Below are positions 37,679 through 39,928 of a DNA stretch of 64,000 nt, piece after piece; position 1 is the first letter of the stretch, and the number at the start of each line of letters is the position of its first letter. Position numbers and translations under genes: made by a program. Under the pieces are notes generated by a model that did not search any database, was not told where the DNA came from, and saw nothing but the letters and a program-made list of their open reading frames with translations. Source of the DNA: Escherichia coli (lineage in GTDB: Bacteria; Pseudomonadota; Gammaproteobacteria; Enterobacterales; Enterobacteriaceae); assembly GCF_041248615.1 (NCBI RefSeq), contig NZ_CP158426.1; one strand, given 5' to 3'.

Positions 37679-38620
37679 TCACCCCCTGAATCCTGCCGGG
37701 ATCTGGCTGTAGTCCACGTTGTCGTAACTGGCTTTGAAGTACGGGTCTTCACGTTTTTCTGTGTGCGTGCTGACGGACGGCGATAAGCGCAGGGAAAGCT
37801 CATCCCATTTTTCCCGCAACTTCGACGGGCTGAGCACGTTACGGCACCAGAACGGATCGCGGCTGACGCGGCTGTACATCTCGCAGATTTGTTTGTGAGT
37901 ACGACCATCCTGCACACACATCAGGCGAATTTCGTTTGCCCAGGCTGTCCAGTTAGGTTCTTTGGGACGAACCACCTCGCCGTCACATTCGGCGGCCTGC
38001 TCGTACAGGGCGATGATTTTTTTCCAGAGCCACTGTGCGCAGGTCAAATCATCCTGCGTTCCCCACTGGCGCTTTTTAGGGCTGAATACAACCGCATCAG
38101 GATGGCGAGTTAAAAAATCCTGTTCATCCATCTGCGTGTCCGGTTGCGAAGCGTCCGGACGAGAAGGTTTTTTATCTGATGGATCATGTTTTGATTTTAC
38201 TGACGGATCCCCGCCAGATTCTGACGGGTGAAAACCCGCTTTTTTGCCAGATTTCGACGCATCAAATTTTGACGGGTCAGATTTTGATGCGTCAGATTTT
38301 GACGGGTCAGAATCTGACAGTTGAGAAAATGCCGCTGCCTGAAGCTTCGCAACGTTAAGCTGATAAACATTCGACGCATTGCGGTTACCCTGGCGACGCG
38401 CCTTACGCGTTAACCAGCCTTCTGCTTCCAGCCGTGCGATAGCCGTTCTGACGGTACTCATCCCCGCGCCAATCTGACGGGCAATGGTTTCAATTGATGG
38501 CCAGCACACACCTTCGTCATTACTGAAATCAGCCAGGCGGGCCATAATTGCCACGCTGGATAACTTCATGCCTGATGCAGCGCAACCATCCCATACATAG
38601 CCGGTTAATTTAGTGCTCAT
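37679..38620 (-). CDS. phage replication initiation protein (replisome-organiser N-domain, DnaT-like C-terminus)
   Basis: N-terminal wHTH (CWPSIETIARQIGAGMSTVRTAIARLEAEGWL); repeat-encoded linker; C-terminus YDNVDYSQIPAGFRG mirrors the DnaT C-terminus [13 protein letters not shown] at 60180-60204. Confidence 0.6.
   Translation of the reverse strand: MSTKLTGYVWDGCAASGMKLSSVAIMARLADFSNDEGVCWPSIETIARQIGAGMSTVRTAIARLEAEGWLTRKARRQGNRNASNVYQLNVAKLQAAAFSQLSDSDPSKSDASKSDPSKFDASKSGKKAGFHPSESGGDPSVKSKHDPSDKKPSRPDASQPDTQMDEQDFLTRHPDAVVFSPKKRQWGTQDDLTCAQWLWKKIIALYEQAAECDGEVVRPKEPNWTAWANEIRLMCVQDGRTHKQICEMYSRVSRDPFWCRNVLSPSKLREKWDELSLRLSPSVSTHTEKREDPYFKASYDNVDYSQIPAGFRG
38185..38330. repeat. iteron-like direct repeats inside the replication gene (putative ori)
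   Basis: About five copies of (C/T)AGAT(T/C)(T/C)TGACGGGT spaced at roughly 18-20 bp, with an adjacent A+T-rich stretch. Confidence 0.5.
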
Positions 38621-38629
38621 GACCGACCT

Positions 38630-38968
38630 CTATTTCCCTGAATTTACGACGAAACTGTTCGAGCGGACTGAAGCATTCATGCTCATAACCTTCGCGGAGG
38701 TAGATAACCCGTTGTGTTTCCGGCTCCCAACGAATGACTCTGACGAGCACTCCGTAGTGATCTTTGAACCAGCGGTTAACTTGTCGCAAAGGACTGTCTC
38801 CTTCTGCCGGTTGAAATCACCCACAGCCCACTCTGCAAAGCTGTGGGTTACAATTTCCCTGTCACCTGGTACATTCACTGCATAGCAATATTCCACCTTC
38901 GCTTTTCCACCCGGTACAGGAAGCGCAATCAGTTGCGAGCGACGGTAGTGTGTTGTTAAACTGTTCAT
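38630..38968 (-). CDS. hypothetical protein; possible frameshift or overlapping small gene
   Basis: First about 55 aa look protein-like, the rest is low complexity; an alternative frame encodes ...[33 protein letters not shown] with an AAGGAG SD. Confidence 0.3.
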
Positions 38969-39555
38969 GCGTTAGTTTCTCCACAACCAGAAGCAATCGA
39001 CGCCACGACGCCCGGAGCTGCACACTCACGGGCGTCATTACTTTCTGAAATGCAAAAAATTTTGTAGACAAGTGCTGCATGCTCCTGCAGCTTCGAAATT
39101 GAGAGATACAGCTCGTCGTTAATTGCTGTCTTCTCATGCGGTTCCACTACGCCGTCTTCGATTGCTGAACGAATCTGTTTTGAATAACTGCCGATCTGTT
39201 CAATGACTTCCAGCAGACGCTGGTTAATATCGGCGTTGTCCACATCCTCGACGTCAGGAAGAGACACAAAGACGCCATTTGCAGACTGCGCCACAGCATC
39301 AGCAATGAAGTGAGTGCCACCAGCACGCTGTAAAACCATTGCCCATCCCAGCGGGAAAATCTGATCGCCATCTGCACGAAGGCGGTTGAATAAAGCGTTC
39401 TCTGTTACATCCAGCCAGTCAGCGGCTTCAGCGTAACCCCCCGGCAACGCCGCGATAGTTTTTCTGACAGCTTTCACGTACCACTCAGGCTGTTTTTCTA
39501 TTTTCCAGTGATGCTTACCCACGGCTATCTCCTTAAAACTGTGGTTACTTTTCAT
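38965..39555 (-). CDS. CII-like phage regulatory protein (Phage_CP76/YdaT-like)
   Basis: Position after cro; weak resemblance to the CP76/YdaT-type family; start uncertain. Confidence 0.35.
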
Positions 39556-39793
39556 CTGATGAATCTTTAATCTTTTGAAAAATATCTGGACGTAATTTTT
39601 CTTTTGATATGCCAGTGGTCTTTTCAATGAATATCGAGAGCTTTGCAGGGGGACGCTTTTCTCTGTTCAACCAGTTCCAGACATGTTGTTGCTTTACTAA
39701 ATGACCGCTGCTGGCTGTGAGCTTCCGAGCCAATTCTGATTGACCACCAGCCAGAGCGATTGCCTCCGATAAGGCTAATTGCTCAGGTGTCAT
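39545..39793 (-). CDS. Cro-like HTH regulator
   Basis: 82-aa HTH protein divergent from the cI-like gene. Confidence 0.55.
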   Translation of the reverse strand: MTPEQLALSEAIALAGGQSELARKLTASSGHLVKQQHVWNWLNREKRPPAKLSIFIEKTTGISKEKLRPDIFQKIKDSSDEK

Positions 39794-39928
39794 AGCTTTC
39801 TCCTTTTTTGGTAGTTAAGTTGTTACGAGCTGCAAGAATACAACATTAACAACTTTTACCACAACTTTTAGGTGTTGGAAAGCTAAAACATAAAGTTGTA
39901 ACCTCATCAAAAAAGAGAGGGATATGTT
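39794..39928. promoter_or_regulatory. immunity-region intergenic segment with repeated operator-like half-sites
   Basis: AAGTTGT / ACAACTT at 39818-24, 39850-56, 39862-68, 39894-39900 between divergent cI and cro. Confidence 0.5.

Follow-up and report, generated by a model that had tools for sequence, protein, structure and literature searches.

We analyzed a locus on the minus strand of a 64,000-nt stretch of Escherichia coli DNA (the window, to which all coordinates refer). Here the 112-aa open reading frame (ORF) ymfM covers most of a 59-aa ORF of the DUF4222 family, just upstream of an O-like replication initiator gene. The most probable reading, to which we give a probability of roughly 0.78, is that ymfM and DUF4222 are separate genes of the early-right operon in an e14-like prophage, overlapping in different frames and each with a translation start of its own. 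In this reading ymfM would consist of a conserved module of ~59 residues and a tail of ~53 residues, the tail being the +1-frame reading of the DUF4222 gene, and DUF4222 would be translated from its own AAGGAG-TTG start.

Layout of the two ORFs

A first-pass annotation of this stretch had proposed either a frameshift or an overlapping small gene just upstream of the replication gene. Both ORFs are in the sequence as it claimed, the 112-aa ORF running from 38968 to 38630 and the 59-aa ORF from 38789 to 38610. The TTG start assigned to the second frame (38789–38787) follows the Shine-Dalgarno (SD) motif AAGGAG (38803–38798) at a distance of 8 nt. The reported 11-nt overlap with the start of the replication gene is also present, as the TAA stop of DUF4222 (38612–38610) lies 8 nt past the ATG at 38620. 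DUF4222 is in the −1 (+2) frame relative to ymfM. It is nested out of frame in ymfM, and its 3′ end lies 20 nt past the ymfM end. The features of the two genes are as follows.

38630..38968, minus strand: ymfM ORF, 112 aa, from the ORF list; ATG to TAG, with the TAG at 38632–38630; b1148, "cell division inhibitor YmfM" in the K-12 reference.
38792..38968, minus strand: YmfM N-terminal module (N-module), codons 1–59; phrog_20047 match; selection at the amino-acid level.
38633..38791, minus strand: YmfM tail, codons 60–112; +1-frame reading of the DUF4222 gene, stop-free, sequence not conserved.
38610..38789, minus strand: DUF4222 gene, 59 aa, TTG start and TAA stop; PF13973; coding sequence (CDS) WP_001250266.1 / WP_001250269.1 of the NCBI Prokaryotic Genome Annotation Pipeline (PGAP).
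38798..38803, minus strand: SD sequence AAGGAG of DUF4222, read from the sequence, 8 nt upstream of the TTG.

The 59-aa ORF is a DUF4222 gene

The 59-aa ORF is a genuine gene of the DUF4222 family and evolves under strong purifying selection. Against the Pfam family DUF4222 (PF13973) it scored 66.3 bits, with a cut-off of 27 (E 1.7e-18), and residues 2–53 aligned to profile positions 3–52 of 53. It also matched phrog_1343 (E 3e-34). The description of the second frame as protein-like is borne out by these matches, the Pfam match being full-length. We found 133 database homologues across Enterobacterales, most of which are named DUF4222 by the source. In a 26-sequence alignment, residues D10, G13, V16, V18, R32, C39 and F50 were invariant. 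The AlphaFold model built with the 26-sequence alignment had a predicted local distance difference test (pLDDT) score of 84.5 and formed a small beta-barrel of five strands and one short helix. The DUF4222 protein is predicted to be a small SH3/Tudor-like beta-barrel, and a fold search with the model returned generic small-barrel matches only.

In relatives, DUF4222 begins with ATG or GTG, preceded by purine-rich SD-like motifs. In Serratia BZS1, Yersinia YeP2, Elizabethkingia EKP1, CharmingMan and Citrobacter phiNP, DUF4222 is a free-standing gene which abuts or overlaps the replication initiator gene.

DUF4222 codon 15 (38746–38744) is Leu (CTC) in the window and in E. coli O91 RM7190, and Pro (CCC, CCG or CCT) in K-12, SfII and nearly all others. 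The base change behind Leu15 also turns Pro75 of YmfM into Ser. A 5-bp hairpin, in which AAGGA of the ribosome-binding site pairs with UCCUU before the TTG, was considered as a coupling device and rejected (z = −0.94, not conserved in relatives). An initial idea that the nested ORF might be the K-12 gene "oweS" was dropped; the K-12 reference used here shows only ymfM, ymfN, oweE and aaaE.

Amino-acid selection switches frame at the DUF4222 start

Non-synonymous (dN) and synonymous (dS) divergence was compared by frame between e14 and the Klebsiella phage ST147-VIM1phi7.2. Polymorphism was counted in a set of 45 e14-clade haplotypes. The results were as follows.

N-only region, ymfM frame, e14 versus Klebsiella phage: dN 0.33, dS 1.11.
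Overlap, DUF4222 frame, e14 versus Klebsiella phage: dN 0.072, dS about 2.5 (saturated).
Overlap, ymfM frame, e14 versus Klebsiella phage: dN 0.31, dS 0.04.
N-only region, ymfM frame, 45 haplotypes: 16 synonymous, 6 non-synonymous.
Overlap, DUF4222 frame, 45 haplotypes: 11 synonymous, 2 non-synonymous.
Overlap, ymfM frame, 45 haplotypes: 1 synonymous, 12 non-synonymous.

The dN/dS ratio was ~0.3 for the N-module in the ymfM frame and ~0.03 for the DUF4222 frame in the overlap. Where DUF4222 starts, amino-acid selection thus passes from the ymfM frame to that of DUF4222. Within the overlap, purifying selection was found on the DUF4222 frame only and not on both frames. The contrast between the two frames there arises because each third codon position of DUF4222 falls on a second position in the codons of ymfM. 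Of the two options offered by the first-pass annotation, the overlapping small gene is the one that stands: its dN is 0.07 against a saturated dS, a ribosome-binding site of its own precedes it, the start codon in relatives is ATG, and RefSeq annotates it.

A conserved module and a free tail in YmfM

YmfM residues 1–112 match phrog_1170 (E 8.5e-69). Residues 1–59 match positions 1–59 of 63 in phrog_20047, a 63-aa family (E 1e-42). In homologues down to ~45% identity, residues 1–52 are conserved and the remainder diverges freely; the conserved columns are M1, L4, Q12, P17, G20, G21, Y29, F44, W47, V49 and G50. The N-module occurs as a stand-alone gene of 56–65 aa in Providencia, Hafnia and Citrobacter phages. 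In Providencia PSTRCR_117lys the stand-alone N-module is directly followed by O, and DUF4222 was not seen there. In Hafnia yong2 and Citrobacter phiNP, DUF4222 lies further downstream of the stand-alone N-module, behind another gene. A search with the N-module in 1.84 billion cluster representatives gave only 56 matching representatives, many of which fall in two length classes, ~59–77 aa and ~100–123 aa.

The N-module (query residues ~11–52) also matched 6–13 repeated stretches in proteins of 1076–1700 aa (P0095, P0112, P0116 and P0128) at 36–47% identity. This could reflect kinship with a repeat that occurs in large surface-type proteins, or a compositional artefact. Shorter YmfM-like database proteins, considered as candidates for natural nonsense variants, proved to be artefacts of contig ends, adapters or indels and not point nonsense mutations.

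In the AlphaFold model of YmfM the pLDDT was 74–83 for residues 11–50 and below 50 for residues 68–112. A fold search with this model, which is only moderately confident, gave no structural match at E ≤ 0.001. The tail contains 12 Ser in 53 residues, and S, T, A, G and N together make up 51% of it, compared with 32% of the first 59 residues. The tail is serine-rich and without sequence conservation, and the model predicts it to be disordered. An earlier remark that the 112-aa frame turns to low-complexity sequence agrees with this, as the frame is serine-rich after about residue 60 and poorly modelled over residues 68–112.

Such a tail could also mean that function in the 3′ half lies with DUF4222 only. 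What ymfM effectively makes would then be the N-module of ~60 residues, and the tail a meaningless read-through, in which the absence of stops is due to phylogenetic inertia or chance. The tail frame has a dN/dS far above 1 and 12 non-synonymous changes among its 13 polymorphisms, its product is predicted to be disordered, and the stand-alone N-modules of 56–65 aa presumably function without it. In the e14 clade alone, stop avoidance is not significant either: of the 95 silent changes that are possible there, 10 would give rise to a stop, and 11 silent changes were observed (P ~0.3). The comparison across lineages weighs against this explanation.

The ymfM-type frame is kept open across DUF4222

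For this comparison we used 236 loci with 149 distinct DUF4222 gene sequences. A first scan of viral contigs gave near-identical copies only, and the diversity came from scans with divergent queries. The ymfM-type frame was stop-free for at least 50 codons in 144 of the 149 distinct genes. The third frame across DUF4222 genes always contained 3–9 stops. The five exceptions are outgroup DUF4222 genes, which carry 1–7 stops and have no ORF reading through in the ymfM-type frame.

By exact enumeration over synonymous codons, the chance of an open frame given the protein is 0.02–0.16 per lineage. Synonymous sites are saturated across lineages, with a proportion of synonymous differences (pS) of 0.72–0.82. 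For eight lineages differing at 45% or more of their synonymous codons, the joint probability was 10^-9.5 under E. coli codon usage. Pooled usage of the genes themselves, a circular and hence conservative choice, gave 10^-3.2 for the same eight lineages.

Codon choice follows the same pattern. Where a Val, Leu or Ile codon is followed by A or G, a purine in its third position would give TAA, TAG or TGA in the ymfM-type frame. Such codons were NTY in all 660 cases, whereas Val, Leu and Ile codons followed by C or T were NTR in 214 of 630. At DUF4222 codons 16 and 19 the third base covaries with the base that opens the following codon, as in ATA-CGC versus ATC-AGR. We also counted third-base changes by parsimony on a neighbour-joining tree. 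Codons 4, 18 and 28, which are always stop-prone, had 19 changes, none of them to a purine. At the safe codons 29 and 31, five of nine changes were from pyrimidine to purine (Fisher p = 0.0013 compared with the stop-prone codons). In the 136 genes where the ymfM-type frame ends inside DUF4222, it closes 5–74 nt before the DUF4222 stop, and the closing stop is made by different codons in different lineages (ATA-G, TTA-A, GTA-A or GTA-G). Taken together, these data point to selection maintaining the openness of the ymfM frame across DUF4222 beyond chance.

Inertia or chance is an unlikely explanation of these data. It would have to account for an open frame in 144 of 149 genes across saturated lineages, each with a chance of only 2–16%, and for stop-prone codons that never take the purine third bases which the same codon types use freely in safe contexts. 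The five outgroup genes that are not read through do carry stops in this frame. We therefore retain the reading of two overlapping genes with a tail frame that is kept open. Homologues conserving the single 112-aa frame had been named beforehand as the finding that would speak against a frameshift or a second gene. One half of this was found, as a frame of 102–117 aa does stay open; the other half was not, as the amino-acid conservation of its second half is that of the DUF4222 frame.

The stretch is not a sequencing frameshift

Another alternative is that a frameshift splits one ancestral gene, an N-module–DUF4222 fusion of ~118 aa, through an indel error or mutation or through programmed −1 frameshifting. 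The geometry would allow it, since DUF4222 is read in the −1 frame with respect to ymfM, and this frame has no stop in the 9 codons before the TTG. Fused proteins do exist in the databases (P0031, P0053, P0060 and P0065), mostly from raw-read or metagenome assemblies, but their junctions differ, as sporadic indels predict. The DUF4222 frame is closed by a TGA 10 codons upstream of the start.

The sequence itself is well supported. A 461-nt query from the locus showed 100% DNA identity to the finished genome of E. coli O91 RM7190 and 99.6% to K-12 MG1655. It matched 2661 of 5426 complete E. coli genomes, 2003 of these at 80% query coverage or more. The two-frame layout is also found in viable phages, namely SfII, SfIV, mEp390, Eeyore and Klebsiella and Pantoea phages. 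No premature stop was found in either frame among the 45 e14-clade haplotypes, and neither a slippery heptamer (X XXY YYZ) nor a homopolymer run of 5 or more occurs in 38968–38610. Programmed −1 frameshifting was rejected on both points tested: the slippery heptamer is absent, and DUF4222 has its own start signals, with ATG and SD in relatives. In phiNP and yong2 the N-module and DUF4222 are separate genes with other genes between them. The stretch is not a sequencing frameshift. The first-pass proposal of a frameshift, whether as an error or as a pseudogene, is not supported, in view of the 2003 genomes and functional phages with this layout and of the lack of premature stops and of a slippery site, and a split ancestral gene of any kind is very improbable.

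Among the database proteins, P0031, P0053, P0060, P0065, P0104 and P0110 have the N-module, or part of the tail, joined to DUF4222 by one-base frame changes at different points. One cluster of such proteins has 14 members. The fusions are probably assembly errors, and some could be natural variants.

A single gene, the 112-aa YmfM, with a spurious 59-aa ORF inside it, is what the curated K-12 reference with ymfM alone and the filamentation phenotype published under the ymfM name might suggest. This reading has a negligible chance of being right in view of the full-length Pfam match, the homologues in many genera including non-overlapped phage genes, the dN/dS of ~0.03 and the confident predicted fold.

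Operon junctions and proposed coupling

The locus lies in the early-right operon of a lambdoid prophage of the e14 type. The gene order is repressor, cro-like, ymfL, ymfM and O-like, followed by PerC-like, methyltransferase and RusA genes. The two neighbours of ymfM and DUF4222 are as follows.

38965..39522, minus strand: ymfL, cII-like, with a Phage_CP76 domain (Pfam PF06892, E 2e-13); PGAP ymfL coordinates mapped from L001.
37679..38620, minus strand: O-like replication initiator, 313 aa, from the ORF list; Pfam HTH_36, with weaker DnaD_N and RP-C matches.

The TGA of ymfL overlaps the ATG of ymfM in the sequence ATGA at 38968–38965. The ribosome-binding site of the O-like gene, GAGG (38630–38627), shares the last base of the ymfM TAG, and the ATG of the O-like gene at 38620 follows the ymfM stop codon at a distance of 9 nt and falls within the 3′ end of DUF4222. 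From these stop/start overlaps at ymfL–ymfM, ymfM–O and DUF4222–O we infer translational coupling. ymfL, ymfM/DUF4222 and O would form a translationally coupled chain, in which ribosomes in either frame would terminate at the O start region. The tail would be translated as a disordered, sequence-tolerant extension of the N-module. Selection may then preserve the tail product, or it may preserve ribosome passage to the O start or the control of DUF4222 initiation.

Several points weigh against this picture. The DUF4222 start in the e14 clade is TTG, a weak start codon. The YmfM tail shows no amino-acid conservation, and a function of the tail peptide itself is hypothetical. Coupling to the O gene is deduced from geometry. 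The operon is repressed in the lysogen, both products of the native locus are predictions from the sequence, and ymfM was not found in the main texts of ribosome-profiling papers. Bringing ribosomes to O can account for the open frame at most in part, because in phages of the SfV/Stx type the frame has no stop ahead of O and extends into an Ash-family domain. The open-frame statistics assume independent lineages, which these are not in a strict sense. The tree rests on the same 180 nt, and lambdoid phages recombine frequently.

The published division-inhibitor phenotype

ymfM is the accepted answer to the 35-year-old question of the identity of SfiC, an SOS-inducible division inhibitor (assigned in 2020–21), and is used as a tool for obtaining filamentous cells. 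Ansari et al. expressed the ymfM "open reading frame" from pBAD24 and observed filaments without Z rings, independent of SulA, SlmA and MinC; a sulA ymfM double deletion shortened SOS filaments (bioRxiv 10.1101/2020.11.19.390815). An earlier filamentation clone from a library, D1-8E, carried ymfL 142–185, all of ymfM and ymfN 1–92 (PMC3614548), and therefore ymfM and DUF4222 both complete. A UTI89 screen mapped only the ymfN–ymfK region.

An insert spanning ymfM from ATG to stop would hold the DUF4222 ribosome-binding site and codons 1–53, and with them the Pfam domain in full. Codons 1–53 of DUF4222 would also be lost on deletion of the ymfM ORF. The published clones and deletions considered here carry or remove both genes, and these experiments cannot separate ymfM from the DUF4222 product. 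In a text search of the Ansari preprint, neither a nested ORF nor DUF4222 nor an overlap was mentioned, and among the matches listed, the papers naming DUF4222 and the ymfM papers do not coincide. Attribution of SfiC to the 112-aa YmfM is plausible, and the start signals of the pBAD vector favour the ymfM frame. SfiC could instead be wholly or partly the DUF4222 protein, or need both products, which we regard as rather unlikely. The constructs behind the SfiC assignment contain a second conserved gene, and this bears on how ymfM experiments are interpreted.

Annotation of the locus

ymfM and DUF4222 are each already in the databases individually. In the curated K-12 record the 112-aa ORF is annotated as "cell division inhibitor YmfM" and the 59-aa ORF has no entry. 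In two E. coli records inspected in detail, PGAP annotates the 59-aa ORF as "DUF4222 domain-containing protein" and omits ymfM. An annotation of ymfM under the match was absent in all 30 E. coli records listed for the 461-nt query. Phage records are divided, some annotating ymfM and others DUF4222. The K-12 reference (ymfM only) and RefSeq/PGAP (DUF4222 only) thus each hide the other gene from users.

Prophage context

Counterparts of the O-like gene in SfII and other phages are annotated as O-family or replication protein. In the window the intact 313-aa O-like initiator is followed by PerC-like, adenine methyltransferase, LexA-family and RusA genes, and this prophage is much less decayed than K-12 e14. 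Inside the O-like gene, at 38200–38322, lie five to six copies, spaced 15 bp apart, of the partly palindromic unit GTCAGAnnnTGAC, with GTCAGATTTTGAC and GTCAGAATCTGAC as examples. The units encode a low-complexity "DPSKSDASKSD" linker of the O-like protein. They look like origin iterons sited in the initiator gene, as in lambda ori.

An Rfam scan of 38300–39300 returned no RNA families. No sigma-70-like promoter was found in a scan of 38300–40100, which gave no sign of a separate DUF4222 transcript, and terminator-like matches in the same interval were at chance level.

Comparison with known systems

The gene is that known as ymfM (b1148)/SfiC in K-12 e14; in both places the 112-aa ORF is flanked by ymfL and the O-like gene. 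Compared with K-12 e14, where ymfN is truncated and chimeric, the replication gene of the window is intact at 313 aa. In K-12 e14 (L002, L003) only ~78 codons of the O-like gene are left, joined to a terminase fragment (ymfN = oweE + aaaE).

Genes of the Pfam DUF4222 family typically lie immediately upstream of the replication initiator and overlap it, as is the case here. Unlike free-standing DUF4222 genes, those of the e14, Klebsiella, mEp390 and Pantoea clades are almost wholly covered by an upstream ORF in another frame.

In SfV (orf37), 2H10, ST64B and Stx phages, an ORF starting from the same ATGA junction (MNSL...) reads through DUF4222 in the same relative frame; in the Stx phages it goes by the name "antirepressor". 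It then continues into a Phage_ASH domain right after DUF4222, with or without a Rha domain, and these ORFs are 278–383 aa long. The overlapped stretch is thus a linker in the SfV/Stx-type ORFs and a tail in ymfM. The part of the SfV/Stx-type ORF upstream of DUF4222 is under purifying selection (dN/dS 0.21/0.71, ~0.3). The ORFs lie at 1052–1888 in L094 (SfV orf37) and at 1052–2203 in L100 and L101 (Stx2a_1447 and PhiR63_1); that of ST64B is in L093. Their start is annotated inconsistently, with gp40 of 2H10 starting 291 nt later. In Hafnia yong2 (L009) an Ash-family CDS at 2496–3159 starts 4 nt after the DUF4222 start and covers DUF4222 fully in the +1 frame. DUF4222 itself (L009 2492–2677) is intact and unannotated there, and the Ash domain begins at residue 68, after the DUF4222 end. 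Lambdoid phages keep a sequence-unconstrained frame open across DUF4222, which may mean that selection preserves translation through the gene and not the tail peptide.

Kil (lambda/Rac), DicB (Qin) and SulA are small FtsZ-ring blockers which are encoded in early operons or induced by SOS, and this is the role that the literature assigns to the present locus. Neither YmfM nor DUF4222 has sequence or fold similarity to them.

The textbook nested phage genes are Rz/Rz1 of lambda, a small gene embedded out of frame in a larger gene on the same strand. Like Rz1, the nested DUF4222 has its own ribosome-binding site and lies in another frame of a larger same-strand gene of a lambdoid phage. Rz and Rz1 are both conserved proteins which act together. 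At the present locus, in contrast, the overlap is conserved as protein in one frame only, and what is preserved of the other is its openness. DUF4222 also differs from the Rz/Rz1 arrangement in running 20 nt past the end of its host ORF. The locus is thus a clean natural overlap of a protein-conserved frame and a frame kept merely open, which is useful for studying how overprinted genes come about and how translation is coupled in the early operons of phages. The system is of no new kind; it belongs to the out-of-frame nested phage genes.

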